A stretch of 64,000 bases of DNA from an uncultured Acidobacteriota bacterium (GTDB lineage: Bacteria > Acidobacteriota > UBA6911 > RPQK01 > JAPXNP01): NCBI GenBank assembly GCA_963777605.1, contig CAVZRV010000027.1:1-64000 (forward strand), read 5' to 3'. The position numbers and the translations under genes are program-made. Positions 15,357 through 62,551 of this stretch are shown piece by piece (position 1 is the first letter of the stretch; each line of letters begins with the position of its first letter). The notes beneath the pieces are model-generated. The model was not told the origin of the DNA. It did no database searches and saw only the letters and a list, made by a program, of their open reading frames with translations.

Positions 15357-15366
15357 TCTCCCTCAA

Positions 15367-16593: not shown

Positions 16594-16713
16594 TGGGGGA
16601 GAGCGACAGGAGTTTCGCTCTCCCCGGAGCAAGGGAAGCGGCAGGGGACCGCCTCCCCGGTTCAGCAGGCGGCAGGGGTGTCCCGCCTGCTGTTGGTGGA
16701 GGATCGAGGGGCG

Positions 16714-44009: not shown

Positions 44010-44834
44010 CTAAACAAAGATGCCTGCCAGTAGCACGAGCACGAGGGTGGCCAGCGCGAAGATTACCGAAACCCATGCCTCAGGTACCCCTTTTCGAAGA
44101 AGGCGATGGGACAGGTGATCTTTTCCTCCCTGGAAGGGCGAAACGCCTCGGAAGATTCGAGTCAGAGATACGAAAAGTGTATCGACCAACGGCACACCGA
44201 GAACGAGCACCGGAATCCACCAGCGGTTCAAAGGCATACCATACAGGGGCAAAACAGCCAGAGCGAAGCCTACCAAATGGCTACCGCTATCCCCTAAATA
44301 AAGGCCGGCAGGTGGGCGATTGAAACACAGGAATGCCGCGAGCGCCCCGGCAAGCGGAACAAGTGCCCAGTCAGCACCTTGACCTAACCAGGTGAATCCA
44401 AGCGCAGCAACCAGGCCAACACTTGGCGCCAGACCATCCATGTTGTCGAGGAGGTTAAGTGAATTGGTCGTCCCAACTATCCAGAAATACCAGACCGGAA
44501 GAGCCCACCAGCCGATGACGAGGTAAAGGTCTCCTCCCCATGTACTGGTGGAAACAAAGGCGATAAAGAGCACTGCTGCCACAGACTGACCAGCGAACTT
44601 GGCGAGTGGGCTGAGTTTGACCAAATCATCAACTGCGCCCACCAGGAAGACCAGGGCCAAGGTGAACCAGAAAAGGCGGAGCGTGAATAGCGCACTCGGC
44701 CCATGGCCCCAAAAGACGCCCGCAAGCATGGCAATCAGAACAGCGTATCCCCCCAACCGAGGTGGGTTGGAGGGGTCTCTTCTCAAAAAAAAAGCCAGCA
44801 CGAGGCTGGCCCCAAAAGCGATCAAGAAGGCCAC
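44010..44834 (-). CDS. MraY/WecA-family undecaprenyl-phosphate HexNAc-1-phosphate transferase
   Basis: PRLGG, GAVDD, NSLNLLDNMDGL, YLGDSGS, DHLSHRL; start uncertain. Confidence 0.88.
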   Translation of the reverse strand: MAFLIAFGASLVLAFFLRRDPSNPPRLGGYAVLIAMLAGVFWGHGPSALFTLRLFWFTLALVFLVGAVDDLVKLSPLAKFAGQSVAAVLFIAFVSTSTWGGDLYLVIGWWALPVWYFWIVGTTNSLNLLDNMDGLAPSVGLVAALGFTWLGQGADWALVPLAGALAAFLCFNRPPAGLYLGDSGSHLVGFALAVLPLYGMPLNRWWIPVLVLGVPLVDTLFVSLTRIFRGVSPFQGGKDHLSHRLLRKGVPEAWVSVIFALATLVLVLLAGIFV

Positions 44835-44879: not shown

Positions 44880-45899
44880 CTACTTCACCGCCGTCGTCTT
44901 CGAGTGATCCGGGTCTTCCCTGTTCACCAGGCGTCGCCCGTTCGGTATCGATAACCCCGCTGCAAAGCCCGCCAGAAATGCCAGGTTGCCTCCCAGAATG
45001 AAGATTGGGGATCGCAATCCCAGCCATACCGAGCGGCGGAATGCCTCAATCAGGGTCACCCGGGAGAAGGATAGTGAAAGAAGTAAAAGGATAACGCCCA
45101 CCCACCATTTCAACAGCAAGCCCAAGGGTGCCAGCCCAAGTGCGACCAACTGGAGCCTGCGCGACGGGGGAGTGCTCGAGTCCGAGAGGGCCTTTCCCGA
45201 GTAGCGGCGGTAGAGGCGAGGCGCAAATCGGCCGTATAGGAATCGCCGCTTCAGGTGATGGGACAGTGACTCAGGATGGCGATGCTCCACGACTGCATCT
45301 GAAACGTAGCGCATCCGGATCCCTTCCGATGCGAGCCGGAACGAGAGTTCCAGGTCCTCCAGTTTCCCGAATCCTTCATCAAAGGGGTCCTCGGGAAGGG
45401 CGTCCTTCCGGAAGGCACAGGTCGCGGTATTGACGAAGTCCGTGTCCGGGAACCGCTCCATCCGCTCGTAGCGACGGTCCAGTTCGATCTGGATCATCCG
45501 GGCGACCCAGTTCCCCTGCCCCGACACAAACCGGCCCACCGTTCCCTGGCAGTCGGAGTCGTCGCTGCCGGTTTGCCGATGCCGGACAGCCAGGGGCAGG
45601 GCCATCTGCTCGATCCAGCCCGGCCCCGGTACACAGTCCGCGTCGAGAAAGAGGATCCTCCCTCCGGATGACTCCCTCAATCCCCGGTTTCGAGCCGCCG
45701 ACGCACCTCGCCCGTCGATCTGAACCAGGCGGACCGGAAACCGACGCGCGATCGCGGCAGTGTCGTCCGACGAGCCGTCATCGACAACGATGACCTCGAA
45801 ACGGGTCGTGTCGACGGTCTGCCGAGACAGTCCGTCCAGGCACGCACCCAGCGTCCTCGCCCCGTTCCGAACCGGGATGATAACCGAGAAGTCGATCAA
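44880..45899 (-). CDS. GT2 glycosyltransferase
   Basis: SVIIPVRN, VVDDGSSD, ARNRG, FLDADC, EDLELSFR; real start judged to be the TTG downstream of the repeat tract. Confidence 0.88.
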   Translation of the reverse strand: MIDFSVIIPVRNGARTLGACLDGLSRQTVDTTRFEVIVVDDGSSDDTAAIARRFPVRLVQIDGRGASAARNRGLRESSGGRILFLDADCVPGPGWIEQMALPLAVRHRQTGSDDSDCQGTVGRFVSGQGNWVARMIQIELDRRYERMERFPDTDFVNTATCAFRKDALPEDPFDEGFGKLEDLELSFRLASEGIRMRYVSDAVVEHRHPESLSHHLKRRFLYGRFAPRLYRRYSGKALSDSSTPPSRRLQLVALGLAPLGLLLKWWVGVILLLLSLSFSRVTLIEAFRRSVWLGLRSPIFILGGNLAFLAGFAAGLSIPNGRRLVNREDPDHSKTTAVK

Positions 45900-45932
45900 C
45901 AGGTTAGCCTTTGCATACTTTAGGGGCCTCAC

Positions 45933-46072
45933 GGGGTTCCAGGTTCCAAGGTTCCGGGGTTCCGAGGTTCCAAGGTTCCGGGGTTCCGAGGTTCCGAGTT
46001 CCGAGGTTTCGGGTTCCGAGGTTTCGGGTTCCGAGGTTTCGAGGTTCCAAGGTTCCGGGGTTCCGAGGTTTC
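45933..46072. repeat. Degenerate 7/8-mer tandem array (AGGTTCCG-like)
   Basis: About 18 units of (A/G)GGTT(C/T)C(G/A). Confidence 0.9.
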
Positions 46073-46156
46073 GGCGGTGGCGCGGTTTGGTGCCGGACAC
46101 AGAGCCGGGGGTAAGGCGAAGCCGCGGCCCCGGGTTCCCGGCACGGTGCCCAGCGC

Positions 46157-46254
46157 GGAATCGGGAATCGGGAATCGGGAATCGGGAATCGGGAATCGGG
46201 AATCGGGAATCGGGAATCGGGAATCGGGAATCGGGAATCGGGAATCGGGAATCG
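46157..46254. repeat. Perfect heptamer tandem repeat (GGAATCG)x14
   Basis: Counted directly: 98 bp. Confidence 0.97.
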
Positions 46255-46683
46255 GGTAGGAAGTGTCCCCGTTCCACGTTCATTGTTCAAGGGGAAAACC
46301 GCACAAATGGCGAAAACCCCCGCGCCGCCCCCGCAAAAACCTTCTGCCAGTGCGACAAGGGGCTCAAGGTTCCCAGTTCCATGTTCAAGCGGGGCACCGC
46401 ACAAAACCCGACCAACCCACGCGCCGAACGCAAACCCATTTCCTGCCCCGGCCAGCCACAAAACCCAAAGGCGCAACGTCATTTCCAGCCCTGGGCAGCG
46501 CCCAGGGAAACCCCGACACACCAAGAAGTCCCTGCGCTGAAAGCGCGACTCAACCCCTCCGCGCATCCTCCGCGTCGTCGCGCCATCACGGCTTGCCCAA
46601 CGGGTTCCGAGGTTTCTGGTTTCTGGTTTCTGGTTCCTTTGAGAGATGATCGCTGATTTTGGAGATCGGACGTTCTTTCGGTG

Positions 46684-46822
46684 TTCAGAACGCGAGTGAA
46701 GCGAGCGCGTCTCCAGGCCTCCATCCGCCGCCGATCCTGGATCTTGCCGCCCGCAGCCTCCGGCAGAACTCCCGGCGGTTAGAGCACGTCTGCAGCAGCG
46801 CTCGCTTCACTCGCGTTCTGAA
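46684..46822. repeat. 139-bp element with perfect 25-bp terminal inverted repeats
   Basis: TTCAGAACGCGAGTGAAGCGAGCGC at 46684-46708 and its exact reverse complement at 46798-46822. Confidence 0.9.
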
Positions 46823-46904
46823 ATCCGCCTCCCCAGGATCCAGCCGGCCACTCCTTGCGGCGCACCAGGCCGGAACCCCGCGAACACAGCCCGCCTCAGG
46901 CGGG

Positions 46905-47192
46905 CGGAATCGAGTAGCCCAGGACGAAGCAAAGCGGAGTCCTGGGTGCGCGCGGCCTGTCGCCAACCCAAGCCCCGCTCGCGGGGCGGAATGGAGTAGC
47001 CCAGGACAAAGCGAAGCGACGTCCTGGGTCTCCCGGCCGACCCCCAACCCAAGTCCCGCCCCGGCGGGACGACAGGGCTAGGGTCAGGAGGCAGGAGACA
47101 GGAGACAGGAGACCGAGCTCCACTTACTCGAACCCCGGAACCTTACTGGTCGATCGCCCTGGCCCAAAGACAGGCGGGGACGCCTGTCCCAC
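46905..47192. repeat. GTAG/GTGG-type REP cluster plus (AGGAGAC)n
   Basis: Two GTAG-CCCAGGAC-loop-GTCCTGGG units; minus-strand GTGG-GACAGGCG..CGCCTGTC at 47169-47192. Confidence 0.8.
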
Positions 47193-47207
47193 ATCGAGAC
47201 GCGCGCC

Positions 47208-48512
47208 CTAGAGTTTCACCACGTTCTCATGCCGCCCCTTGAACGCATCCCGGCTGTCGAAGATCAACTGGGCCGAGCGCTGGATCATGCCGTAATCGAC
47301 CCTGGAGTGATCGGTCACCAGCACCACGATGTCATACCCGGCAACGGCCTCCGCCGTCAGATCAATCGAGCGTTTCTGGATATCGACCGTCCCGTGATCC
47401 GAGCGCAGATTCGGGACATACGGATCGTGGTAGTCCACCTCCGCCCCGTCCGCCTCCAGCAGCCGAATGATGTCCATCGCCGGCGATTCCCTGGTGTCGC
47501 TGACATCGCGCTTATAGGCCACGCCCAGTACCAGGACCCTGGCCCCGTTGACCGCCTTGCGCTGCCGGTTCAAGGCTTTGGCTACCTTCCCTACACAGTA
47601 CTCCGGCATCTCCGTGTTGATCTCGCTCGCCAGTTCAATGAACCGGGCGTTGTAGTTCAGTGACTTCAGCTTCCACGACAGGTAGAGCGGATCGATCGGG
47701 ATGCAGTGTCCGCCCAGTCCCGGCCCCGGATAGAAGGGCATGAAGCCGAACGGTTTCGTCGAGGCCGCCCCGATCACTTCCCAGACCGAGATCCCCAGCT
47801 TGTCGCACATCACCGCCACTTCGTTGACCAGCCCGATGTTGACCACCCGGAACGTGTTCTCGAGCAACTTCACCATCTCGGCCGCCTGCGTACAGGAGAC
47901 CGGGACCACCCGGTCGATCACCTGTTCGTAGAGAAACTGCACGATCGCCGTGCACTCGGGCGTTACGCCCCCGATCACCTTCGGCGTGTTCTTGGTGTTG
48001 AAAACGGCGTTTCCGGGATCGACCCGCTCGGGGGAGAAGGCGATGAAGACGTCCTTGCCGACCTCGAAACCGGCCGCCTCGATCTCGGTCCGCACGATCT
48101 CGTCGGTGGTCCCGGGATAGGTGGTGCTTTCGAGCACGACCAGCATGTCCTTGTGGAGGTGGGGCAGGACTCCCTGGACGGCCTGGGTGACGTAGCTGAT
48201 GTCCGGGTCGCGGGTCTTCTTCAACGGCGTGGGGACACAGATGCTCACGCAATCGACCGAGGACATGAAGTCATAAGTGGTGTAGGCTTTGAACTTGCCG
48301 GTCGCCACCCCGCCGGCGACCGCCGAGTCGGGCACGTCGAGGACGTGCGAGCGTCCGGCGTTTAACCCATCCACCTTCTCTTTCAACACGTCAACGCCGT
48401 GCACCTCGAACCCGGCCCGAATGAACTCCATGGCCAGCGGCAACCCAACGTAGCCGAGCCCGACAATCCCGATCTTCGCTTCCCGTTTTGCAATCTTCTG
48501 TTTCAGTGACAT
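47208..48512 (-). CDS. Nucleotide-sugar dehydrogenase (UDP-GlcNAc 6-dehydrogenase, WbpA-like)
   Basis: GLGYVGLP, CVPTP, ESTTYPGTT, SPERVDPG, KLLENTFR, GGHCIPIDP. Confidence 0.93.
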   Translation of the reverse strand: MSLKQKIAKREAKIGIVGLGYVGLPLAMEFIRAGFEVHGVDVLKEKVDGLNAGRSHVLDVPDSAVAGGVATGKFKAYTTYDFMSSVDCVSICVPTPLKKTRDPDISYVTQAVQGVLPHLHKDMLVVLESTTYPGTTDEIVRTEIEAAGFEVGKDVFIAFSPERVDPGNAVFNTKNTPKVIGGVTPECTAIVQFLYEQVIDRVVPVSCTQAAEMVKLLENTFRVVNIGLVNEVAVMCDKLGISVWEVIGAASTKPFGFMPFYPGPGLGGHCIPIDPLYLSWKLKSLNYNARFIELASEINTEMPEYCVGKVAKALNRQRKAVNGARVLVLGVAYKRDVSDTRESPAMDIIRLLEADGAEVDYHDPYVPNLRSDHGTVDIQKRSIDLTAEAVAGYDIVVLVTDHSRVDYGMIQRSAQLIFDSRDAFKGRHENVVKL

Positions 48513-48701
48513 GTCCTGTTTCGTTCCTGGTTTCTGGTTCCTGGTTGAACGTGACCAACGACCTCAGCGAAACCCCCGCGCCACCGCGCCTCTGCGGTTG
48601 ATCCACCTGAAATGTTAAGGGTTTCGGGTTTCCGGTGGAAGGAATCGGGGAAAGGGAATCCGGAACCCGATATCCCAGCACTTAAAAACCTCGAAACTCG
48701 C

Positions 48702-49649
48702 CTAAACTCTCTCTCTCAAGTCGAGGAAATGCTGCACCGTCCGAGCAAGCCCGTCCCGAAAGCCGGTCTGAGCCCGAAAACCCATCACTTCCTCCGCCCG
48801 TGATACGTCGGCCAGGCTGTGCCGCACGTCCCCGCTCCGGGCTTCACGATACTCCGGGCGAAAATCCGTCTTCAAAACCACATTTAAGATCGACACCAAC
48901 TCATTCAGACTGTAGCATTTCCCAAGGCCAATGTTCAGTACGCTTCCAGCCGGGGCGCAATCGGCGGCTGTAAGGTTGGCATGGACGATATTCCCCACGT
49001 AGACGAAGTCTCTCGTCTGCTCTCCATCCCCGAAAATGATCGGGGCGCGCCCGTCGATCATTCGGGTGATGAACTTGGGAATCACGGCGGCGTAGTCCGA
49101 CGCCGGGTCCTGTCGCGGACCAAAGACATTGAAGTACCGCAGGGCCACGACCGGGAATGAATACAGGTCCCGGAAAAGCCGCGCGTAGACTTCGTCCATG
49201 TACTTGGAAGCGGCGTAAGGGGACTTGGGAGCGGGCACCATCGACTCCCGCTTCGGCAATTCAGGATCATCTCCGTAGATGGCGCAAGTCGAAGCGAAAA
49301 CCACCTTCTCGACACCGGCCCGACGAGCCGCCTCGAGCACGTTCAGAGTACCGGTGACGTTGATGTCATGGCACAACTGCGGTTCCTCCACCGACTTCTG
49401 AACCGAAACCATCGCCGCCTGATGGAAGACTCTCCTCGCGCCTTCGAAGGCCGGGACAAGCGCAGCACGATCCCGGATGTCCGCCTGGACGAACTCGAAC
49501 CGTCCGCCATGATCACGATCCAATCCCTCGAGGTTCTCCAGTTTTCCAGTGCTCAGGTTGTCAATCACCCGGACGCTCCGCCCCGCCTCCAGCAACCCCC
49601 GCACCAGATGCCCCCCAATAAACCCAGCCCCCCCAGTAACTATATCCAC
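48702..49649 (-). CDS. NAD-dependent epimerase (WbpP/GalE-like extended SDR)
   Basis: TGGAGFIG, YAASK, LRYFNVFGPRQDP, GDGEQTRDF. Confidence 0.92.
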   Translation of the reverse strand: MDIVTGGAGFIGGHLVRGLLEAGRSVRVIDNLSTGKLENLEGLDRDHGGRFEFVQADIRDRAALVPAFEGARRVFHQAAMVSVQKSVEEPQLCHDINVTGTLNVLEAARRAGVEKVVFASTCAIYGDDPELPKRESMVPAPKSPYAASKYMDEVYARLFRDLYSFPVVALRYFNVFGPRQDPASDYAAVIPKFITRMIDGRAPIIFGDGEQTRDFVYVGNIVHANLTAADCAPAGSVLNIGLGKCYSLNELVSILNVVLKTDFRPEYREARSGDVRHSLADVSRAEEVMGFRAQTGFRDGLARTVQHFLDLRERV

Positions 49650-49679
49650 GACTATTCCTAGGTTGTGTGGTTGAGGGAT

Positions 49680-50230
49680 CTCAACGCAAAGGCGCTAAGA
49701 TCGCTAAGATTTCCTTTGTTTCTTTCTCTCGACGCAAGTTCCCTCGACAATTTCACAAGCTCGCACGTTATTAGATAACGATGAGCAAAGCACAACAAAT
49801 CGAATCTATTGCAGCCGAAATTGTCGATGCAGCCGTTAAAGTCCATCGCCAACTCGGACCAGGTCTCCTGGAGTCAGCTTACCGGAGATGCCATTCGTAC
49901 GAGTTGCGGAAGAGAGGACTGAAGCTTCGTCCAGAAATCAGACTGCCTATAAAGTACGATGGAATCACACTGGATGCGGGTTACCGGATAGATGCCTGGG
50001 TCGAAGGACTGGTAATCATCGAACACAAGACTGTCAGGCGCCTCCTGCCTATTCACGAAGCTCAGTTGCTGACCTACCTCCGCCTCACGGGATGTACGCT
50101 TGGCTTTCTGCTCAACTGGTACACCGTCCGAATGAAACAAGGCATCAAGCGGATGGTACTGAACCACCCAGAAGATACCCATTTCAAACAAACTATAGAA
50201 CCTTAGCGTCCTTCGCGCCTTCGCGTTGAG
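49680..50230. mobile_element. Putative cassette: GxxExxY gene bounded by 29-bp imperfect inverted repeats
   Basis: Arms at 49680-49708 and 50202-50230 match at 25/29; mobility is inferred, not shown. Confidence 0.55.
49781..50206 (+). CDS. GxxExxY protein (PD-(D/E)XK nuclease-like)
   Basis: VHRQLGPGLLESAY, YRID..VE..VIIEHK, HEAQLLTYL, GFLLN. Confidence 0.92.
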   Translation: MSKAQQIESIAAEIVDAAVKVHRQLGPGLLESAYRRCHSYELRKRGLKLRPEIRLPIKYDGITLDAGYRIDAWVEGLVIIEHKTVRRLLPIHEAQLLTYLRLTGCTLGFLLNWYTVRMKQGIKRMVLNHPEDTHFKQTIEP

Positions 50231-51647
50231 AATCCACGCTGGGGACGGAGAGGAATCCGAGGTAGACTCCGCCCACCAGGGCGATGGCGAGGCTCGGGTA
50301 GGGGTAGTCACCGACGAAGGAGATTGCGACGAGCGAGAGCAGCACCCAGGTGAGCATCACTTCGAAGACCCGCCAGCGACCGAGATCGACTTCTCCGAAC
50401 TCCAGTCTGAACGTTGCCACAGCCAGGGTCACTGCCGCCCACCAGAAACTGCCGAGTTTGGCTCCCAGGGGAATGGCATCGGTCATCATATAGGTCAACT
50501 GAGCCAGCAGGCCGGCTCCCACTCCCAGTGCGAGGGCCCGCCGAAACGACGAACCCGTCCGGCGCCCCGAAAGCCAGAGCATCCGACCGATGGCGGTCAG
50601 GATCCCCGCATAGGCCACCAGCCCCGGAATCCCGAGGTCCAGGGCGGTTTGCAGGAACTGGTTGTGCGCGCTCGCAATATCCGTATCCGGGGAGATGAGG
50701 AAGAGGGGATAAAGGACGTGGACCACCTTCCGGAAGGCATTCATCCCCATCCCGGTAAAGGGAAAATCCTGAATCCCGTAAACCGCCCGGTTCCAGATCT
50801 CCATCCGCGCCGCCAGTCCGATCTCACCGGCGCCCGATTCCACCACCTCGCCGACGGCCTCCTGGTTCCAGGGCGCCCACACCAGCAACCCGACGACGGC
50901 GAGCACCACTACTCCGAGGGCGGCCCATCGAAGCCAGCGGTACCGGATAACCAGCAGCAACCCGATCGACACCATAAAGCCGGCCCAGGCACTGCGGGAC
51001 TGGGTCAGGACCAGAACCCCCAAAGCCCCCGAGCCACCCGCGAGCAGGACCCACCCGAGGGCGCGGCCCCACCGCTCCCCGACGATCTGCCTCGTCAACA
51101 TCCAGCCCAGCACTCCGATCAGGGGCAGAAACAGGACCAGGGAGCCACCCACCGGGTTGGCATTGAGTGCGCCTTCGGGCACAGGAACCGGAAGCCGGGG
51201 CGGCAGATACGGGATAACCGCCCGCACCAGCGGCAATTTCGCGGAGAAGGGGGTGATCAGAAAGCCGAGCAGCGCAAAACCGAGTCCGCCAAGACAGAAG
51301 AGCCCGGTCGCAATCCAGAGTCGACGGTCCCGATCCAGCCACTGAATGGCGGCCAGGAGCGCAAATACCCCCAGCAGCGTCCCCGCAATCTTCCCCAGGC
51401 TGAACGAGACATCGAACGTCGCCCAGACACTGACCCCAACCATGATCAGCAGGGCCAGCAACAACGGATTCAGGAGATTCGGCTCAACAAAGTGCCGCCG
51501 GACCACAAACCCGGCGACCCAAACCAGCGGCACAGCCAAAACCACGGGCATCCAGGGCAACCGCGGGAAAAGCAACAGCGGCGCGAGAATCGCCACTACT
51601 CCCAGGTGTACCCAACTGTGTAAACTCGCTGCCCGACCCAGGTTCAT
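50193..51647 (-). CDS. O-antigen ligase family protein
   Basis: LTQSRSAW, ARMEIW, PFTGMG, SAHNQFLQTALDLGIPG. Confidence 0.9.
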   Translation of the reverse strand: MNLGRAASLHSWVHLGVVAILAPLLLFPRLPWMPVVLAVPLVWVAGFVVRRHFVEPNLLNPLLLALLIMVGVSVWATFDVSFSLGKIAGTLLGVFALLAAIQWLDRDRRLWIATGLFCLGGLGFALLGFLITPFSAKLPLVRAVIPYLPPRLPVPVPEGALNANPVGGSLVLFLPLIGVLGWMLTRQIVGERWGRALGWVLLAGGSGALGVLVLTQSRSAWAGFMVSIGLLLVIRYRWLRWAALGVVVLAVVGLLVWAPWNQEAVGEVVESGAGEIGLAARMEIWNRAVYGIQDFPFTGMGMNAFRKVVHVLYPLFLISPDTDIASAHNQFLQTALDLGIPGLVAYAGILTAIGRMLWLSGRRTGSSFRRALALGVGAGLLAQLTYMMTDAIPLGAKLGSFWWAAVTLAVATFRLEFGEVDLGRWRVFEVMLTWVLLSLVAISFVGDYPYPSLAIALVGGVYLGFLSVPSVDSQREGAKDAKVL

Positions 51648-51804
51648 TTTCGATTTACGAGGTTCGATTTACGATTGATCAGGAAGGAATCGGGGAGCGA
51701 GAAGCGGGAATCGAGAACAGGCTCAGGACCCATGGAGTCCCAATCTGCCCCACAACTGCGTCTGTCGCCCCCAATTCCAAATCACCAATCGAAAATCGTA
51801 AATC

Positions 51805-52161
51805 TCAAGCCCCGAGCCCCAGTTTCCCGGCCACATCGTCAAGGCGACGGTCCAGGCTCCAGATCCCCAGGGTGCAAATTAGCGCTGAGGCAAGCAGGTG
51901 CATATCCACCCAGCCCAACCCTTGCCCCATCAACCGCCGACGTTCGATCATTTCGAGCACCTCGGCATCCCCGACCCGCGCTGCTTCGGGCAACGCCGTC
52001 AGAAGATGCAGGATCTCATCCCGATTCTTCAGGTTCCCGCAAGCCAGTTCGCCGATCACAAAGGAATGGACGGCCACCCGCTCTTCATCGAGCAACAAAG
52101 CCAGCTTCGGCAGGCCCGAGCGCAGGTGCTCGACCCAGACCGAGGTATCCACGAGAATCAC
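51805..52161 (-). CDS. vapC: PIN-domain toxin VapC
   Basis: ILVDTSVW, IGELACG, GWVDMHLLASA, WSLDRRL. Confidence 0.9.
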   Translation of the reverse strand: MILVDTSVWVEHLRSGLPKLALLLDEERVAVHSFVIGELACGNLKNRDEILHLLTALPEAARVGDAEVLEMIERRRLMGQGLGWVDMHLLASALICTLGIWSLDRRLDDVAGKLGLGA

Positions 52162-52165
52162 GCCT

Positions 52166-52354
52166 TCAAGATCTCCGTCGTGGGATAGCCTCGAGTCCCG
52201 GTTCGCTCCCGCCAAGCCGTCTCAGTCGCCGCCCGCTCTCCCGGGCAATCAGAGCCTTCAAGCCCTCATGAATGAGCTTCGTCTTCTCTTCTATCCCACT
52301 CAACCGCGCCGCCTCGCTGATCAGTCGATCATCCAGATTCAACGTCGTCCGCAT
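52166..52354 (-). CDS. vapB: VapB antitoxin (RHH type)
   Basis: MRTTLNLDD.LI.EA.RL.G..EKT; directly upstream of vapC; TGCAT-N4-ATGCA palindrome at its start. Confidence 0.88.
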   Translation of the reverse strand: MRTTLNLDDRLISEAARLSGIEEKTKLIHEGLKALIARESGRRLRRLGGSEPGLEAIPRRRS

Positions 52355-52419
52355 CTGCATCAGTATGCACTCTACATGCAGACTCAGTCAACATGCGCAT
52401 CCCCGGCAAGCCGATCCCC

Positions 52420-53085
52420 CTCCGCGTCTTGGCGTTGCAATTCGAAGTCTCCAGATTGAAGGTTCAGGTTAGCTGGGCCCCCGGCGGCGCCGGACCATTC
52501 AAAGAGTGAAACTGGGTCCGCGAACCCGGGGGCGCGGCTTCGCCTTACCCCCGGCTCTGTGTCCGTGCCATTCCACGTTTCAAATGGACCCAGGGTCCAA
52601 GCTTCAGGTGAAGGTTCAAGTCAGCCTGGCCGCCGCGCTCCCCGCGGATCATTCAGAACGTGAAAATGGACCTGGCAGAGCGTGAAAATGGACCTGGCGC
52701 AAGGCGCCTTGGTTTCAGCCCAGGGCTTGCCCTGGGTCTGTGGTGGCCGGGCACTTCGATTGCGGCCTGTAAGGTCGCACCCCGGATTCACTTCGTCCGA
52801 AGCGGTGTTCAGCCCCTTCAGGGCTGGATTCTTGATGGGTGGACCGTGAACCCAGGCAAATGCCTGGGCTGGAAACAGGCCCCCTTCAGGGGCCCGCCCG
52901 GCGCCGATCCCGTGATCATCACTCATCCACGTCTGGCACCGGACCAGGAACCAGGATCCAGCCGAGAGCCACGGCTTCTGAGTTCTGCCGATAGCCCGAA
53001 TCTCCGTCCAGACGCGTCCAAATCATCCAGGATTTCCAGTTCATCCAGATTGAAGGTTCAAGCTTAGCCGGGCAATCGGCTTCGG
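52420..53085. repeat. Mosaic intergenic repeat region (REP-like hairpins, recurrent motif, 44-bp block)
   Basis: Motif copies at 52450-52516, 52605-52671 and a partial copy at 53044-53066; 52522-52565 is an inverted copy of 46094-46137; CCCAGGG/CCCTGGG and GCCCCTTCAGGG hairpins. Confidence 0.8.
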
Positions 53086-53111
53086 CCACGAGACAAGCAG
53101 AGATGCTTATC

Positions 53112-55436
53112 CTACTCGCCGACGGTCTTCCGACTCTTCCCCATGGCCACGACACGCCGGCGGTATCCGAAGTCCAACGACTCGAAGACTTCGTAGACGG
53201 CGGCCGGATCCCCATCCGCCACCGCGGACTCGAGTCGATTCAGCGCCTCGCGCACCTGCGCCGTTTCCCGGTTGACGGGCTGGGCCACAAAGATCTTCGA
53301 ATAGCGAGTGTCCCGCACGCCGTGCTCCCGCCCGGTCAAGAGTTCCTCGAACATCTTTTCGCCGGGGCGCAATCCAGTGTACTCAATGTCGATGTCTTCT
53401 CCGAGCACAAGCCCGGACTGCTCGATCAGGTCTCGGGCCAGGTCGGCGATCTTGACCGGATCCCCCATATCGAGAACGAACGTCTCTCCGCAGCCGGCCA
53501 GTGAGCCGGCCTGCAGCACCAACTGGACGGCCTCGGGAATGGTCATAAAGTAGCGCTTGATCTCGGGGTGGGTCACCTGGATGTTGCGTCCCTGAGAGAT
53601 CCGCTTCTGGAAGGTCGGCACGACGCTGGCCCTGCTGCCGAGCACGTTTCCAAAGCGCACGCAGCAAAGGCGCGTCCGTTCGGTTTTCTTTGCCGCGCCG
53701 CGCATCACCATCTCCGCAACCCGCTTCGACGCACCCATGACGCTGGTCGGATTGACCGCCTTGTCGGTCGAGATCATCAGGAACCGCTCCGCCCCCGTTT
53801 CCACCGCGAGCTCAACGACGTTCCGCGTCCCGAAAATGTTGTTGGCAACGGCCTCCGTGGGGTTGTGCTCCATCATGGGAACATGCTTGTAGGCAGCCGC
53901 GTGCAGGATCACTTCGGGACGATAATCGGCAAAGACCTGCGCCAGGCGACGGCGGTCCCGGACGTCGGCCATGATCTCAACCAGCGGCGTGGGCGAGTTT
54001 TCACGAAGGTCGATTGCGACCTCGAAAAGTCCATTCTCGTCCTTGTCCAACAGCAGAAGGCTCTGCGGGCTGTAGTCCCGCAACTGGCGAACGATTTCCG
54101 AGCCGATCGACCCGGCGGCCCCGGTCACCAGGATCCGCTTTCCGGCGTAGGCCGAAATCAACTGGGCATCGCCCTCCGGAAACTCGACACTGTCCCGACC
54201 CAGCAAGTCCTCGATCCGCACGGGTCTGCAATCGGCTCACCCGGACGCGGCCAAGCAGGATCTCCGACAGCGCGGGCACGCTGCTGACCTTGATCCCTTC
54301 AGCTTCACAGTCCGCCACGATTCGCCGTGCGGCAACCTTGGGAACGCTCGGCATCGCCAGGATGACCTCGTCCACCGAGGTCGCCTCGACGATTTCCCGG
54401 ATCTGGCGGGTCGTTCCCAGAACCCGCACTCCGTGGATCTCCCGCTTGCGTTTCCGCGGGTCGTCGTCCAGGAATCCGACGATCTCGAAATCTCTCCGCC
54501 GCCCCAGTTCATCGATCAGCTGAACCCCGGCATCGCCGGCGCCGACCAGAAGCACCCGGCGTCGATTGACCCGTTCCGGATGGCGGCCCCCGCGCCAGAC
54601 GGAGTGACGGAACTGGACCCGGCGCAACCCTCGAACCGAGAGAAGCCCTACGAAGGCCAGCGGCGCATGGACCATCAGGATGCCAAAGGGTATCCGCAGC
54701 AGCGGGTACTGTTCCAGTAACAGAATCCGCGCAACAATCAGCGTCAGCGCCGCAGTCGAAACCGCCAATCCGATCACGATCGCTTCCCGAATACTCGTGA
54801 ACCGCCAGACAAAGCGCCCGACACCCCAGAACTGGGTAACCAGGATGTAGAGAAGAATCACGTAAGGGGCGACGACGATGAACTGTTTCTGGTAATTGAT
54901 CGGGGGCATCCCGTCAAACCGGATCAGGTAACTGAATGCCAGGGTCCCCCCAACCGCCACTGCGTCAATAAAGAGCTGGGCCCCGCGGCTGAAGGGAACC
55001 TTATCCTGAATCCCCAGCCCGATGTTCCGGCTCATCGCATACGCCGCAAATCCGACCAGCGCACAGATCCAGGCCAACGCCCAGGTGACTCGCGGAAACA
55101 CGTGATCCTGGGGCAGAAGCACGCTGATGAGGCCCATCAGGGCAAAGAAGGAAGTCAAGGCAGCCAGGTCAGTGACCGGAGACTGCTGCAGGCGGGGAAT
55201 CGCAGCCAGCAGCACCCGGTAGCCCAGATAGCAGCCGAACCCGAGAAGAAACCCAGGGAACAGGGCGTGGCGAAAAGCCTCGACAGAATAGCTCACGTAG
55301 GCCCAGTAACGCCGACGAGCTCTCGCCGGAAGCCGCCGGCCCAAAAAGGAGAAACCGGACGCTCAAAGCCGCCATCAACGACGCCGACACCAAGCCCGAC
55401 AACGCCGCGAAAGCGCAACGGATCCTTCCAAGTCAT
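53112..55436 (-). pseudogene. CapD/PglF/WbpM-like nucleotide-sugar 4,6-dehydratase split by frameshifts
   Basis: TM N-terminus, VGAGDAG, IEDLLGR, TGAAGSIGSE, HAAAYKHVP, STDKAV, RFGNVLGS, RPGEK. Indels at ~54229, ~55345 (T5 run) and probably ~55410. Confidence 0.8.
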
Positions 55437-55632
55437 TCCCAACAGTCCTGTCCCCGGCTCACGAAACAATGGTCGTCCCCCCCAGAAACGATTTACGACC
55501 GTCGGCGGCGGTCAACCTTCATCGAGAGCTCGACCGCTTACCTTGGGTTTCGGGTAGAAAAAGCATCCCCACCTGCTCCCTGATCGAAGCCACCAACCCA
55601 CCCAACCGGTAGGAAATCGGGAAACCACGACG

Positions 55633-55851
55633 CTACCCGGTCTTCTCCAGAATCAGGTTCTCCGTCGAGAGATTGAAAATGTCACGAAGCGAATAATTCC
55701 TGGCAGCATCCAGTACTTCGAACCCGATGACCAAACCCTGCTCGTCCAGATCAAGGATCACACCGTCCGACACTTCCCTGGATTCAGCAATCTCCTTCTC
55801 CTGAATTCGGATGTAGAGGGCATCGACATCACGATCATATTCGATTCTCAT
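55633..55851 (-). CDS. DUF2283 domain protein (putative antitoxin)
   Basis: MRIEYDRDVDALYIR...GVILDLD..G.VIGFEVLDA. Confidence 0.9.
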   Translation of the reverse strand: MRIEYDRDVDALYIRIQEKEIAESREVSDGVILDLDEQGLVIGFEVLDAARNYSLRDIFNLSTENLILEKTG

Positions 55852-56030
55852 GAAAGATCCTTCCAGACAACCGTGATCACGACTGTCTCCTGATCGGTCT
55901 CCTTATAGGTTACTCTCAGAATGCGTTCACCGAATAACTTTGCTGCATTCTTCCTCCCGAAAGCCGACTCCTCCACGCGACTCGGCCCTTTCAGGACATC
56001 GAGTACTTCCGATTCAGAAACCTGCCGGCC
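55848..56030 (-). pseudogene. DUF4258-like putative toxin lacking its N-terminus
   Basis: SESEVLDVL..P..GRKNA.K....LRVTY...VVITV; ATGA overlap with DUF2283; the 5' end is replaced by repeat DNA. Confidence 0.65.
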
Positions 56031-56048
56031 TCCCTGGCCGGCCCTCCC

Positions 56049-56099
56049 CCTCCGCGTCACCGCGGTGATCAGCTTATCGAGTTCGTTTCGAGTAACGGG
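56049..56099. repeat. Left ~50-bp direct repeat flanking AbrB-VapC
   Basis: CCTCCGCG(T/C)CACCGCGGTGA...CGAG(T/A)TCGTTTCGAGTAACGGG, shared with 56975-57024. Confidence 0.85.
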
Positions 56100-56238
56100 T
56101 TTCGGGCGCACAACATCCGGGAATCGGGAAAAACACAACAGCCCCGCAACCTGAACCAGAACCGTAGAACTTGGCACGTTGACCACTAAACGTAGAACTT
56201 ATTGATTTTCGGGGTAACATAGTCGCAAGAGGTGTAAC

Positions 56239-56475
56239 ATGGCGACATCCCGGGTAACTGAAAAGGGTCAGGTTGTCATTCCCGCCGAAATCAGGCGTAA
56301 ATACAACATCAAGAAGGGTACCCGCGTCGTGGTTACGGAGACCGAGGGCCGGGCGATCCTGGTCAAGCCGATCCCCGATGACCCGATCGAGGCGTCTAAA
56401 GGCGCACTGAAAGGGAAGATATCCCTGGCAAACGCCCTGATCGAGGATCGACGCGAGGAAGCCGCGCGTGGATGA
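56239..56475 (+). CDS. AbrB/MazE/SpoVT-family antitoxin
   Basis: SRVTEKGQVVIPAEIRRKYNI..G; GAGGTG RBS. Confidence 0.92.
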   Translation: MATSRVTEKGQVVIPAEIRRKYNIKKGTRVVVTETEGRAILVKPIPDDPIEASKGALKGKISLANALIEDRREEAARG

Positions 56476-56872
56476 AACCTACGTTCTGGACAGCTACGCT
56501 TTACTGGCTCATCTCGAGGGAGAGGCCGGCGCCGGCCGGGTCGAGTCCATCCTGAGAGCAGCTCAAGAGGGGAAAACAAGACTATTCCTGTCGGTAATCA
56601 ATCTGGACGAGATCTTCCACATCACGCTTCGAGAATTGGGTCACAGAAAAGCCGAAGAGGCCCTTTTCCTCGTCGAGCAGCTTCCGCTGGAAATTGTCGA
56701 TGCCGACCGGGAACTGACTCTCCAAGCCGCGCGGCTCAAAGCCGCCTACCCGGTCGCCTACGCCGACTGTTTCGCCGCGGCACTGGCCAGACGGGAACAG
56801 GCAAAGGTCGTCACCGGCGACCCGGAATTCGACCGTTTCGGCCAGGAAGTCCCCATCGAACGCCTTCCCTGA
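56468..56872 (+). CDS. vapC: PIN-domain toxin VapC
   Basis: YVLDSYALLA, SVINL.E, AYADCFAAALA, VVTGDPEF; overlaps the antitoxin. Confidence 0.92.
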   Translation: MDETYVLDSYALLAHLEGEAGAGRVESILRAAQEGKTRLFLSVINLDEIFHITLRELGHRKAEEALFLVEQLPLEIVDADRELTLQAARLKAAYPVAYADCFAAALARREQAKVVTGDPEFDRFGQEVPIERLP

Positions 56873-56974
56873 CGGAAGCATTTTCGGTTTACGATTTCAG
56901 ATTTTCGATTTGATCGGCCCCTCGTACGCGGGCATCAACTCAGAAGCGCCCAACCCCTCCGCGAAACCTCAGCG

Positions 56975-57024
56975 CCTCCGCGCCACCGCGGTGAACAACG
57001 GCCGAGATCGTTTCGAGTAACGGG
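56975..57024. repeat. Right ~50-bp direct repeat flanking AbrB-VapC
   Basis: Matches 56049-56099. Confidence 0.85.
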
Positions 57025-57082
57025 CTTCTGGTTTCGAGTGGGAATAGCGGGCAAGCCAGAAAGACCAGAAACCCCTAAAACC

Positions 57083-57420
57083 CTAAACCCCAGTCCCCAG
57101 CACTCCCACGATCCGGTCCGCCGCCCGCCCATCCCAAAGCGGAATCTCCCGAGCCCGCTTCGGCGCCTTCAGCTGCGCCATCGCCGCCCGATACACCGCC
57201 TCCGGATCACTCCCCGCCAAAACATTCGACCCCAACTCAACGGTAATCGGCCGCTCCGTATTGTCCCGAGCGGTCACGCAGGGGACATCCAGAAAGGACG
57301 TCTCCTCCTGGATTCCCCCGCTGTCGGTCACCACCAGCCGGGCATGCTTCATCACCCCAAGAAACTCCAGGTACCCCATCGGCTCGACCAGTTCGAGCCC
57401 TTTCAACGGCGGCCCGCCGT
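57083..57420 (-). pseudogene. wecB: C-terminal fragment of UDP-GlcNAc 2-epimerase
   Basis: EPMGYLEF, VTDSGGIQEET, RDNTERP, LWDGRAADRI; the N-terminal ~2/3 is absent. Confidence 0.85.
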
Positions 57421-57604
57421 TTTCCGAGAACCGTTTCCCAACCACGTTAAGAATGCGAATCACATTAACTCCCCGATCAAGGGACTCCAAGCCCGCTTTG
57501 GAGTGCTGAAGCGGAGCAAGGTAAAAACAGCTTATTCCCGACGCGGAGATCGGCGAGGTCAAGAAGAAGTCCCGAACCTTCAATCTTGAGGCACACCAAT
57601 AGTA

Positions 57605-58663
57605 TCAAGCACCGAAACCACCTCTTCTCATAAACACTCGCCTCTCGGCACGATGTGTAAACGCGAGAAGCGCCAGGAACAGAACTGGCACGATCACAAT
57701 CGAAGCCAATCCGGCAGAAGAGTACCCGGCGGCTAAAAGCACAGCAAGACCTGACCCAGTCAAAGCCAGCCCACCATAAAGGACCGTAACGAACTGGTGA
57801 GAGTACCCGGCAATCACCAGGCGCTGGTAGAGATGAGACCGGTGGGCTTTGAAAACGTTCTCCCCCCGCAGCACACGCCGACATAACGTGAAGGAAGAAT
57901 CCGCTAAAAACGGCCACAGTAAAAGAGCACTACTGAGAAGAAATACGGGATCCATGACGCCACTTACAATCGTCATGATCGCAAAGGCGAAGCCCAGGAA
58001 GGAACTGCCGACGTCCCCCATGAAGATTCGGGCAGGAGACCAGTTATGCACTAAGAAGCCAACCGATGCCCCCAGAACAAGGGCTCCAAGAACCAACAAG
58101 AAAGCGCTACCGCTGTAAACCCCAATTCCGAGCCACCCCAAGGATGCAGTGACCGACTGTACACCAGCAATGCCATCGATCCCATCCATGAAATTGTAGA
58201 TATTCGTCACTCCCACGATCCAGACGACAGCGACTCCCAATACCAGAAAAGCCACCGACGGATCTGGAACACTGGTTAAGTTCGGTTGATCAAAGATCCG
58301 AAATGCCCAAACCCACCCGACAGCTATACACACTTGAACGACAAGGCGAAGTAACGCGGACAGAGGGCGGACATCATCAATGAAGCCAAGGATGGCAACT
58401 GCAAACGATGACGCGGCAAATGCCAGAACCGATCGCCAACCGATTCCCGGAAAGAACAGTCTCCCTAAGAAAAGGCCGCCTATAGTGACAACAACGATCG
58501 CCGCCCCTCCTCCTCGCGGCGTCGGATTCTGATGCGAACTGCGTTGGTTGGGAACATCCAGAACCTGATTCCTGGCGGCCCAAACAACAAGACGAGCAAC
58601 CAGACCCGCCGAAATGAACCCGGACACGAAGACCACAACGGCGAGAAAAAGACCGGTCCTCAT
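57605..58663 (-). CDS. MraY-like initiating transferase (WbpL-like)
   Basis: DVPNQRSSH..PTPRGGG, GFIDD, NIYNFMDGIDG, FMGDVGS, AHRSHLYQRL. Confidence 0.92.
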   Translation of the reverse strand: MRTGLFLAVVVFVSGFISAGLVARLVVWAARNQVLDVPNQRSSHQNPTPRGGGAAIVVVTIGGLFLGRLFFPGIGWRSVLAFAASSFAVAILGFIDDVRPLSALLRLVVQVCIAVGWVWAFRIFDQPNLTSVPDPSVAFLVLGVAVVWIVGVTNIYNFMDGIDGIAGVQSVTASLGWLGIGVYSGSAFLLVLGALVLGASVGFLVHNWSPARIFMGDVGSSFLGFAFAIMTIVSGVMDPVFLLSSALLLWPFLADSSFTLCRRVLRGENVFKAHRSHLYQRLVIAGYSHQFVTVLYGGLALTGSGLAVLLAAGYSSAGLASIVIVPVLFLALLAFTHRAERRVFMRRGGFGA

Positions 58664-58684
58664 CGAGTAATTGAATCCTGAAAA

Positions 58685-59275
58685 TGTGAGCCGCTCAAAG
58701 CGGTCAAAACGTCGCCGCCTGCGCGGCAACTTGCGCCACCTGAAGGTGGCTACTGATCAAACAGTTTAGGCTGATCCCGACGTCGATCCTCCGCTTCCTG
58801 TTGTTGGATGTACTCACGGATGACGGCCTCTTCGCGGCCCACCGTCGAAACGAAGTACCCACAGGCCCAGAAGTGCTGGCCCACGAAATTCCGCCGCCTC
58901 TCGCTGAAGTTCCGGGCGATGTGGATCGCACTCTTCCCCTTGATGTAACCCACGACCCAGGCCTACCGAGTCTTTCGGCGGAATCGAGATCATCATGTGT
59001 ACGTGATCCGGTCTCACTTTCCTGGTGTTGAGCCAACTGCCGAAACAGCGGACCCAGTTCCCCGCGCAACGTCCCAAAAATCACTTTCCTCCGGTATTTC
59101 GGGATAAACAGCACGTGATACTTACACTCCCACTTCGTGTGCGTTAGACTTCTGTAGTTCGTCATTGAACTCCCTTTCGTGCAGCTTTGGTCGGCTCACG
59201 AAGGGGAGTTCTCATTCAGATTTCCGCAAATGTCAAACTTCGGCTGCCTCCCCGGCAGAGCCGGGGGGACTCTCG
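58685..59275 (-). mobile_element. tnpA: IS200/IS605-family element with frameshifted tnpA
   Basis: HTKWECKYH..FIPKYRRK; DHVH (HUH) and GKSA..FWA.GYFVSTVG..IREYIQQQ lie in three frames; subterminal hairpins CCCCGGCAGAGCCGGGG and CCGCTCAAAGCGG. Confidence 0.88.
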
Positions 59276-61543: not shown

Positions 61544-61624
61544 TTACCACCAAAATCCCTGAGCTCTTATGCCCAAAGCTCCGTGGGCACAAATACAACC
61601 ATTCGTATACCGGCCCCTGCGACA

Positions 61625-62542: not shown

Positions 62543-62551
62543 CTTAGAAAA

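Follow-up and report, generated by a model that had tools for sequence, protein, structure and literature searches.

Array-armed hairpins, REP-like repeats and toxin-antitoxin modules as candidate colonists of a polysaccharide operon in an uncultured Acidobacteriota bacterium

The first 64,000 nucleotides of contig CAVZRV010000027.1 from an uncultured Acidobacteriota bacterium (hereafter the window) contain a polysaccharide operon whose gaps, between 45.9 and 57.1 kb, hold short-period tandem arrays, hairpins and several small genes, prominent among them a gene for a GxxExxY protein lodged in the loop of a hairpin with array-built arms. With a probability of roughly 0.55, we hold that a sugar locus under loose constraint has become host to intervening-sequence-like, array-armed hairpins and toxin-antitoxin modules. 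On this account, three kinds of lodgers would have lengthened the gaps secondarily, both in the present lineage and in a sister genus. The first would be palindromic elements whose arms are inverted tandem runs of 7-9-nt units and which are either empty or loaded with one small gene, the passenger being GxxExxY in the window and PF05635 in heptamer-armed copies elsewhere in the genome and in many phyla. The second would be hairpins and satellite units that resemble repetitive extragenic palindromes (REP) and are related to those flanking a Y1 transposase gene on another contig, C7, and the third, type II toxin-antitoxin modules that lack repeat boundaries of their own and sit chiefly in the gap between the Wzy and CapD genes. 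Coordinates below are positions in the window, and C-numbers denote contigs of the same genome (G000; 6.73 Mb in 53 contigs).

The anatomy of the first kind is plainest in the unit around the GxxExxY gene (49781-50206, plus strand; PF13366, E=1e-35; TIGR04256, 126.6 bits), which codes for a small protein of the PD-(D/E)XK fold, is present in a single copy in the genome and lies in the hairpin loop on the strand opposite to that of the operon. The left arm (49679-49711), consisting of TCTCAA followed by three copies of (CGCNAAGNN), and the right arm (50199-50231), which overlaps the GxxExxY stop codon and the last codons of the Wzy gene, constitute inverted pair I3, a 33-nt inverted repeat with 85% complementarity. 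A genome-wide scan for runs of the arm unit (regular expression (CGCNRAGN1-2) in at least two copies) returned 79 runs, 61 of them intergenic, against 10 in a shuffled genome. These form 19 pairs of a forward followed by a reverse run: 18 enclose loops of 22-33 nt, and the remaining one, with a loop of 489 nt, is the GxxExxY unit. The 18 empty copies align with each other over about 150 nt, conserved outer flanks included, and the loaded copy matches their consensus at both ends through the arms and about 10 nt of the loop. Such a relation would be expected if the empty copies had arisen from a coding element by internal deletion, or if a gene had entered a loop at its middle. As in the REP systems associated with RAYT transposases (REPINs; RAYT, REP-associated tyrosine transposase), a dispersed palindromic repeat flanks a single-copy gene in inverted copies, and as in miniature inverted-repeat transposable elements, the non-coding copies have terminal inverted repeats in common with the coding copy. 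One of the empty (CGCNAAGNN)-armed copies is found in the window itself at 16323-16388, just upstream of a kdsA-like gene (start 16197), within the spacer that separates it from the next gene; an array of (CTTCGAA)x9.4 comes after this copy at 16523-16588, and the sole Rfam match at 16230-16620 is SorX at 13 bits. A second empty array-armed hairpin, of a different arm type, fills all of the space from the VapC stop to the Wzy start (51648-51804; inverted pair I8), with arms of (ATTTACG)n and its complement and a loop of about 100 nt.

The association of GxxExxY genes with inverted flanks extends beyond this genome. To assess it, the 200 nt that precede a gene were compared locally with the reverse-complemented 200 nt that follow it, and a locus passed if its best match scored at least 27, a value that only 2 of 400 random small genes of G000 attain. 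Within the bacterial family, 9 of 19 testable GxxExxY loci pass (drawn from 21 matches in 11 of 16 genomes, after exclusion of one 40-residue partial match and one locus without an upstream flank), as do 18 of 29 loci in a sample of the phylum; the phylum tally and the search for genome copies include one unpublished genome (G018), on which no claim depends. Inspection by eye shows a complete periodic-arm hairpin or an array beside the gene in seven non-passing family loci as well (L106, L107, L116, L118, L121, L122 and L123). The arms vary in sequence from locus to locus within the family with their 8-9-nt period constant, and those of the phylum loci have a common CACAGAGG-like unit of 8-9 nt. 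Dispersed units of the CGCNRAG type are likewise numerous in several related genomes when set against a backwards-pattern control: 179 against 12 in G010, 324 against 3 in G009, 227 against 1 in G013, 49 against 11 in G006 and 33 against 10 in G002. The GxxExxY genes at L105-L123 and the window at 49740-49780 also have a motif in common just upstream of the start codon (TTCGCAGATTC ... CG.GCGTTAT...), which is probably a promoter or leader of their own, so that the unit would bring its own expression signals.

A comparable anatomy surrounds a second gene family, the four-helix-bundle proteins of PF05635. In the bacterial family, 15 of 22 loci pass the same test (after removal of six loci that were partial or sub-threshold and of two whose flanks were short), and across many phyla 47 of 75 do so, as compared with 2% of 600 cross-paired flanks. 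The latter set comprised 79 loci, of which four were dropped for short flanks, and was gathered with an alignment of five proteins; a broad 13-protein alignment was too diverse. Under a second stop rule, 51 loci pass; in 36 of them the arm period is 7, and 37 have a purine-rich upstream arm and none a pyrimidine-rich one. Both copies in the present genome are array-flanked, namely an intact one at C10:396262-396564 and a decayed one at C7:1120238-1120935, and these are the only genome-wide matches to a hidden Markov model (HMM) of 15 four-helix-bundle proteins from the family. The heptamer CAGGAGA, four copies of which stand in the sugar operon, belongs to a unit type that elsewhere forms the arms around four-helix-bundle genes. 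The idea that cargo-free spacers of the operon hold remnants of such genes was rejected, because the HMM, run against all six-frame open reading frames (ORFs) of the genome, finds no match in 45.9-57.1 kb.

The surroundings of the two PF05635 copies deserve description in their own right. The C10 gene (L137, 395900-396800) lies directly after a putative tRNA gene, recognised by eye, has a hairpin of (GAAGTGC)n and (GCACTTC)n arrays on its 5' side and is accompanied on both sides by a repeat of about 45 nt, GTTCGCACTTCGCACTTCGGTTTCG..., with a direct-repeat score of 87. The C7 gene (L001) is frame-broken, matching the HMM in two pieces (E=2e-7 and 0.08), and lies between metH and dapD, bracketed by (AGAAGAC)x4.3 and (CTCCTGT)x3.1.

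The mechanism that we infer from this anatomy would comprise RNA processing, mobility and possibly some benefit to the host. In any transcript crossing an element, the arms would pair and seal off the insert as a stem-loop, and this stem would be cut by RNase III, by analogy with the intervening sequences (IVSs) of 23S rRNA. As periodic arms can pair in several registers, the gain or loss of a unit would leave the stem intact, and such shifted-register pairing may explain why tandem arms tolerate slippage. The spread of the element would probably depend on the encoded protein or on host recombination. Predicted folds agree in part: the arm stem closes the GxxExxY unit in both the minimum-energy and the centroid structures of both strands, with z=-3.3 on the operon strand and an unexceptional z=-0.7 on the gene's own strand, and the minus strand of 51640-51815 folds into one long hairpin with heptamer arms at -71 kcal/mol (z=-3.8; none of 200 shuffles equally stable). 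To this extent the loop-forming, repeat-bounded cassettes proposed in an earlier sequence-only reading of the locus find a counterpart in the GxxExxY unit, which has the arms and folds accordingly, and not in the toxin-antitoxin modules discussed below.

Several observations weigh against this account. One empty copy that was folded is no more stable than its shuffles (z=-0.6 and -1.4 on the two strands). Changes in the PF05635 arms that are compatible with wobble pairing are split 55:55 between sense and antisense, alongside 122 transversions, which is no signal, and those in the GxxExxY arms (37:21, p=0.048) are borderline; hence the arm mismatches give no clear indication of selection on an RNA stem and fit DNA-level palindromes as well. 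A life at the DNA level, as a mobile palindrome whose nuclease would be the PD-(D/E)XK-fold protein, is just as plausible. The association with GxxExxY is also imperfect: G004 has 26 CGCNAAG runs and no GxxExxY match (at a completeness of 85%), G001 and G014 carry three to four GxxExxY genes each with only background counts of that unit, and in G002 the gene occupies the same operon position beside a complete hairpin instead of inside one. For the phylum loci the cross-locus null stands at 16%, because the arms of different loci are alike, and the related genomes are not independent samples. Most arrays of the region are solo, and across the genome 56 of the 296 arrays with periods of 7-9 nt are matched by an inverted array no more than 1.5 kb away (2 of 296 for random positions), so that arms of hairpins directly explain only a minority of them; the solo arrays would be either half-elements or slippage products of the same material. 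Gene calls and start codons, finally, come from our own crude caller.

The closest studied system is the ORF-bearing IVS of 23S rRNA, S23p-encoding examples of which are known from Leptospira, Coxiella and others. In the IVS described in PMC4990558, 28-bp terminal inverted repeats pair into a stem whose loop contains an S23p (PF05635-type) ORF; heptameric repeats, variable in number, lie upstream of that ORF, and RNase III is reported to cut the stem in vitro. The likeness lies in the small ORF within the loop of a terminal-inverted-repeat stem, here with 33-nt arms, and in the inverted heptamer arrays bracketing PF05635 genes both in this genome and in the loci of many phyla. The differences are that the present elements occupy protein-operon spacers and sites beside tRNA genes, not rRNA; the window copy sits between the epimerase and Wzy genes, and Rfam finds no rRNA in the window. 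Its loop ORF belongs to PF13366/TIGR04256 and not to PF05635, its arms are built of 8-9-nt units, and it runs antisense to the operon. A precedent for PF05635-type genes outside rRNA comes from PMC3936711, where 23S_rRNA_IVP genes occur inside cas operons, between cas genes.

A parallel might also be struck with other dispersed bacterial repeats. In REP/RAYT systems, the gene for the RAYT (Y1) transposase is flanked by copies of a dispersed palindrome, and the elements described here resemble them in being dispersed short palindromes with a single-copy gene between inverted copies (18 empty, one loaded), in a genome that also possesses, on C7, a Y1 transposase gene flanked by REP clusters. They differ in that the flanked gene encodes a PD-(D/E)XK-fold protein or a four-helix bundle and not a Y1 (HUH) transposase, and in that the arms are tandem arrays of 7-9-nt units instead of one fixed palindrome. 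The Correia/NEMIS (Neisseria miniature insertion sequence) and ERIC (enterobacterial repetitive intergenic consensus) repeats are bacterial miniature inverted-repeat elements; like them, the present elements are imperfect palindromes of about 150 nt in intergenic or intercistronic positions whose empty copies look as if derived from a coding copy by internal deletion, whereas periodic arms and a coding partner that is no known transposase set them apart. Seen from their sequences, then, the elements would be IVS-like or REP/RAYT-like, outside rRNA, with a second passenger family.

A wider proposition can be put forward tentatively, at somewhat less than even odds: array-armed hairpins may represent a widespread, unnamed class of IVS-like selfish elements, found in mRNA spacers as well as in rRNA, with two alternative passengers, namely PF05635 with heptamer arms and GxxExxY with 8-9-mer arms. 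If so, their empty copies and solo arms would be the source of much of the unexplained load of intergenic heptamer and octamer arrays in several phyla, and the protein carried as passenger would act on its own arms by cutting or binding, so as either to spread the element or to control the element's removal from host transcripts. In several phyla, intergenic heptamer arrays are on record with no agreed explanation, and both gene families are common and of unknown function: the PF13366 row of a survey of PD-(D/E)XK proteins reads 'Unknown' (PMC3424549), and PF05635 is termed functionally uncharacterised in PMC11270868. A literature search that covered few subscription journals found no published link of PF13366 or of non-rRNA PF05635 genes to flanking tandem arrays. 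The occurrence of both families between inverted tandem arrays, together with dispersed empty hairpins, would tie these arrays and genes to the single case studied by experiment, the rRNA intervening sequences cut by RNase III.

The arrays themselves are strongly concentrated at this locus. Tandem Repeats Finder reports ten with periods of 7-9 nt in 45.9-57.1 kb (45935-46070, 46157-46256, 46611-46635, 47085-47113, 48523-48546, 50201-50226, 51646-51676, 56880-56911, 56967-56990 and 57069-57091); they occur in all five sugar-gene spacers longer than 100 nt and in neither of the two short ones (45 and 21 nt), which bears out the earlier statement that nearly every gap holds them. Genome-wide, 210 arrays have a period of 7 or 8 and at least three copies, period 7 being by far the commonest period not divisible by three (177 arrays), and 9 of the 210 fall within the 11.2 kb of the region where about 0.35 would be expected, an enrichment of about 26-fold. 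As many as 56 of all 210 are concentrated in three zones with a combined length of about 70 kb (this one, C7:1.113-1.149 Mb and C35:305-327 kb), all of which are polysaccharide/exosortase loci and all of which reach contig ends; Pfam identifies an exosortase/PEP-CTERM polysaccharide system in the C7 and C35 zones, the former also including the housekeeping genes metH, dapD, dapA and aspartokinase. Arrays adjoin metH, dapA, lysC and pyrG.

Such concentration at surface-polysaccharide genes raises the possibility of contingency loci, wherein slipped-strand changes in unit number would tune or switch the polysaccharide genes and the small genes would be unrelated lodgers. Heptamer repeats of other bacteria are reportedly regulatory. 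Besides the enrichment, this explanation can draw on arrays that abut start codons, such as 48523-48546, 10 nt from the dehydrogenase ATG, and 51646-51676 at the Wzy ATG, and on signs of recent unit-number change: a block of about 600 nt from the spacer between the GT2 (family 2) glycosyltransferase and dehydrogenase genes is duplicated in the C35 polysaccharide locus (C35:322954-323562), and in these paralogues, whose unique core is about 99% identical, the GGAATCG array numbers 14.3 perfect copies in the window and 12.6 on C35, which indicates recent slippage, and the 8-mer array differs in unit variants and length. However, in terms of crude gene calls, arrays are about twice as frequent in convergent spacers (46) as in divergent ones (24), the other 89 being in tandem spacers; they show neither strand polarity (37 against 44) nor a preference for starts over stops (45 against 44), and of those in tandem spacers only 14 of 89 lie within 30 nt of a start. 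The convergent excess and the want of polarity or start preference argue against promoter-type phase variation as a general role and for tolerated repeats, and many arrays stand beside housekeeping genes; we regard the contingency explanation as quite unlikely. Stacked ribosome-binding (Shine-Dalgarno) sites were likewise considered for heptamers of the AACCAGG type and rejected as a general rule, the units occurring in both orientations relative to their neighbours.

Intergenic heptamer arrays have known counterparts in the short tandemly repeated repetitive (STRR) sequences of cyanobacteria. The TAACTGA repeats of Beggiatoaceae, Cyanobacteria and Bacteroidetes are described as mostly forward-oriented and directly upstream of start codons, with translational control suggested, and as such are a reported case of regulatory heptamer repeats in other bacteria; close Bacteroidetes relatives are said there to have shorter spacers without the repeats (PMC4679880). 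The present arrays resemble these in being 7-nt tandem units confined to intergenic regions, with several unit types per spacer and shorter spacers in close relatives, and differ in the missing polarity and start preference just noted, and in that many are inverted pairs around small-gene cassettes or would be relics of these.

Comparison with relatives bears on the supposed colonisation directly. The locus is an ordinary O-antigen/exopolysaccharide-type operon on the minus strand, and the order of its genes (GT4-like transferase, GT2, dehydrogenase, epimerase, Wzy, CapD) is conserved in the comparison of this genome with the related genomes G001, G002, G006, G010 and G014 and with two metagenome loci, L025 and L026. 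No genome of the same genus or near-identical strain was found, and no sequencing run was listed for 47150-57100; a metagenome scan for Wzy gave 83 pattern matches and no relative, and one for the dehydrogenase gave 80 loci, the best 75% identical (L025 and L026). The operon is compact and cargo-free, with spacers of 30-137 nt, in G001 (L022) and in L025/L026, and compact in G006 where short contigs permit reading, and L025/L026 have no 7-mer arrays in it. Long array-filled spacers, of hundreds to thousands of bases, are confined to the present genome and three of the genus g3. Compactness in three related lineages implies that the long spacers are secondary.

Even among the expanded operons, the contents are not fixed, as the sequence-only reading had supposed they might not be. 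GxxExxY stands between the epimerase and Wzy genes in G000 and G002 only; a VapB remnant is found beside Wzy in G014; the DUF2283/DUF4258 pair (82% identical) lies 3' of CapD in G010 and 5' in G000, and the AbrB-PIN pair (68-71% identical) 3' of CapD in G014 and 5' in G000. All four expanded genomes have PIN genes in the gap between Wzy and CapD (one in G000, one in G002, two in G010 and five in G014), which is thus a preferred lodging place for variable cargo.

In the window this cargo comprises, besides GxxExxY, three further units, so that all four of those originally listed were recovered. A VapBC-type pair occupies 51805-52360 on the minus strand (PIN 51805-52215, VapB 52166-52360; PF01850, PF09957), and an AbrB/MazE-type antitoxin gene (56239-56475; PF04014) with its PIN toxin gene (56468-56872; PF01850) occupies 56239-56872 on the plus strand. 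In both pairs a small antitoxin gene directly precedes the PIN gene with overlapping stop and start, the type II layout, and they may be taken as ordinary predicted type II toxin-antitoxin modules, lodgers among the repeats. Between them, on the minus strand at 55633-56186, lies a DUF2283 gene (55633-55851; PF10049, E=5e-19) with a partner (55848-56186) whose designation as DUF4258 is the weak point of the list, its PF14076 match (E=0.035, 14.8 bits) being under the cut-off of 25.

The sequence-only reading had united these units in a non-integron cassette array, in which short-period repeats mediate the gain or loss of all four, toxin-antitoxin pairs included, and the latter stabilise a variable surface-antigen locus. 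The variation of cargo by genus, the swapping of two units around CapD and the ubiquity of PIN genes in the gap between Wzy and CapD are all in keeping with it, as are two local features: AbrB-PIN is bracketed by a direct repeat of about 58 nt (56049-56106 and 56975-57031; families D8 and D11, direct-repeat score 64), which with the inverted repeat at GxxExxY makes up the two paired boundaries originally noticed, and ATTT(A/T)CG heptamers (inverted pairs I9 and I10) come after each of the two PIN genes, read on its sense strand. Nevertheless, among the PIN modules of the bacterial family inverted flanks occur in 1 of 28 and direct flanks in 1 of 28, the latter being the window's own AbrB-PIN pair. 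The 58-nt sequence itself represents a half-element, in which a spacer separates GAAACC-type heptamers from CGCGGNGG-type 8-mers, and recurs before the dehydrogenase gene and in the C7 polysaccharide locus. The family tallies and this recurrence indicate that the toxin-antitoxin pairs are not repeat-bounded cassettes, so that the predicted enrichment of arrays next to cargo is borne out by GxxExxY and four-helix-bundle genes and fails for toxin-antitoxin modules.

Neither are the arrays specific to cargo. The spacer of 1.3 kb between GT2 and the dehydrogenase holds the two largest arrays of the region and no recognisable gene (none of four ORFs has a Pfam match), that between the dehydrogenase and the epimerase has arrays and no cargo, and the cargo-free operon of G001 has 9-mer arrays in its short spacers; together with the arrays at housekeeping genes, this is the commonness of arrays at cargo-free sites that the earlier reading had itself named as telling against it. 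Pfam found no match for the cargo-free-spacer ORFs 45904-46566, 46263-46649, 46659-47081, 46685-47047, 52621-52926, 52660-53067 and 52919-53215. Integron cassette arrays, with an IntI integrase, attC-type sites and small, often promoter-poor accessory genes, resemble the locus insofar as small accessory genes, toxin-antitoxin pairs among them, stand in a row with intervening repeats. The differences are the want of an IntI integrase among the scanned window ORFs, the presence of cargo on both strands (plus at 49781-50206 and 56239-56872, minus at 51805-52360 and 55633-56186), interleaved with core sugar genes, and repeats that are tandem arrays and half-elements and not attC-type sites, though no attC model was run. 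Pfam scans of 61 chosen window ORFs (20 + 32 + 9) found no integrase and no whole transposase, in accord with the initial reading, though a very small or broken gene could escape them. Taken together, the flank tallies, the recurring half-element, the cargo-free arrays, the want of a recombinase among those ORFs and the mixed orientation of the cargo make the cassette array a very unlikely explanation. As a consequence for annotation, the repeat-filled spacers, toxin-antitoxin pairs and small nuclease-fold genes of polysaccharide clusters are to be seen as genus-variable lodgers and not as parts of the pathway.

The state of the operon genes brings up a further explanation, namely that the locus is decaying or recently acquired, with weak selection on spacer length, and has accumulated slippage products, dead repeats and selfish genes, the hairpins having no processing role. 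The CapD/WbpM-like polysaccharide biosynthesis gene (53112-55344, minus strand; PF13727, PF02719) is split by a frameshift near 54222 into two ORFs (54001-55344 and 53112-54221), though it is a single unbroken frame in G014, G002 and G010; this may be a pseudogene or an assembly error, the two being indistinguishable. A UDP-GlcNAc 2-epimerase gene is reduced to its C-terminal third (57083-57583, minus strand; PF02350 profile positions 229-346 of 347), and just outside the region lies a fragment of a Y1 (IS200-like) transposase gene (58704-59165, minus strand; PF01797, E=7e-6, profile positions 2-42 of 121). The want of a wobble signal for RNA stems, the unexceptional stability of the folded empty copy and the favouring of convergent spacers by arrays would also be natural in such debris. 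What it accommodates poorly is the recurrence of a gene between inverted arrays, with differing arms, at PF05635 loci across phyla (47 of 75) and at GxxExxY loci (18 of 29), and an upstream-arm polarity (37 purine-rich against no pyrimidine-rich arms) that is hard to obtain from debris; RNase III cleavage is, moreover, documented for such a stem in an rRNA intervening sequence (PMC4990558). On balance, we consider neutral debris unlikely, and IVS-like hairpins colonising a loosely constrained locus the preferable reading.

Regarding the second kind of lodger, the presence of REP-like hairpins claimed at the outset was confirmed: 12 genomic copies of the motif GGCGGAATNGAGTAGCC are found when up to 1 mismatch is allowed and 20 when up to 2 are, the corresponding numbers for a backwards-pattern control being 0 and 4; the 115 matches at up to 3 mismatches were discarded as mostly chance, the control giving 59. 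Two such GC-rich hairpins, an 82-nt unit repeated 1.9 times according to Tandem Repeats Finder, lie at 46902-47059, and a dispersed or satellite repeat of REP-like hairpins of about 640 nt occupies 52427-53073, with copies 82-96% identical on C8, C11, C24 (in tandem), C29 and C35. A dispersed 48-nt repeat at 46094-46141 is 96% complementary to 52518-52565 (inverted pair I1) and has more copies on C29, C35 and C8. On C7, a Y1 (IS200-like) transposase gene of nearly full length (1122670-1123122; L001:15670-16122; PF01797, E=5e-23) is bordered on either side by one and the same cluster of GC-rich hairpins, which are also the building blocks of 52700-52900 in the window and of a tandem 414-nt satellite on C24; the arrangement looks like a REP/RAYT system.

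The remaining features of the region can be taken in order of position. Genes at 44.8-58.8 kb were placed from an ORF listing with Pfam and NCBIfam. A GT4-like (family 4) glycosyltransferase gene (44010-44834, minus strand) is followed by the GT2 gene (44880-45902, minus strand; PF00535, E=1e-27), with orthologues 54-61% identical in relatives; its true start is near 45902, a longer ORF up to 46283 entering the arrays. The cargo-free spacer beyond it contains an 8-mer array of (GGTTCCGA) x17.5 (45935-46070), the heptamer array (GGAATCG) x14.3 with 100% matches (46157-46256), a half-element (46551-46635; repeat families D4 and D5) in which an CCTCCGCG-type 8-mer run precedes (GGTTTCT) x3.6, and (CAGGAGA) x4.1 (47085-47113). 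The UDP-sugar dehydrogenase gene (47208-48512, minus strand; PF03721, PF00984, PF03720; 74-83% identity in relatives) is separated by a cargo-free spacer, with GTTCCTG x3.4 and a half-element at 48557-48640 (together 48523-48640), from the gene for an NAD-dependent sugar epimerase (48702-49649, minus strand; PF01370, E=3e-61). The gene for a membrane protein of the Wzy-type O-antigen polymerase/ligase family lies at 50193-51647 (minus strand; PF04932, E=3e-24). Behind the AbrB-PIN pair, 56880-57035 consists of ATTTTCG x4.6 and the right copy of the half-element (56951-57035), and a GT4 transferase gene lies at 57605-58729 (minus strand). Rfam gives no match at gathering scores over the whole window and sub-threshold noise only in 44-59 kb (mir-425; Acido-Lenti-1, with 20.5 bits where the gathering score is 37).

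Some minor observations concern the rest of the window. A DUF5916 protein appears to be divided between two ORFs that overlap, 37288-38931 with profile positions 4-231 and 36269-37291 with positions 264-563, which may be a second frameshift or assembly error. At 60266-64000, a block of glycosyltransferase and methyltransferase genes falls to a G+C content of 45-52%, as opposed to about 59% elsewhere, which suggests a foreign origin of that part of the sugar locus. At 7752-8076, between the genes for an EamA transporter and an aminotransferase, inverted heptamers, (GGTTTCT)x3.4 and (CCAGGAA/CCAGAAA)x4.6, stand 270 nt apart; the loop contains pieces of the dispersed element and one translated frame (7776-8044, plus strand) without a Pfam match.

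Others concern the arrays as such. In the operon gaps of genus g3, there are tandem units of about 515, 257 and 103 nt (L018:10100-13900 in G010; L019:6800-7500 and 15000-15600 in G014) that are themselves built from several 7-8-mer arrays in fixed order. The (GGAATCG)n array at 46157-46256 amounts to GGG-N4 repeats, a G-quadruplex-capable pattern on the plus strand and a G3N4 type to which several of the genome's longest arrays belong. For 57069-57091, Tandem Repeats Finder gives the consensus AAACCCCT; this array includes a CCCTAAA-like unit, the complement of the plant-type telomere repeat.

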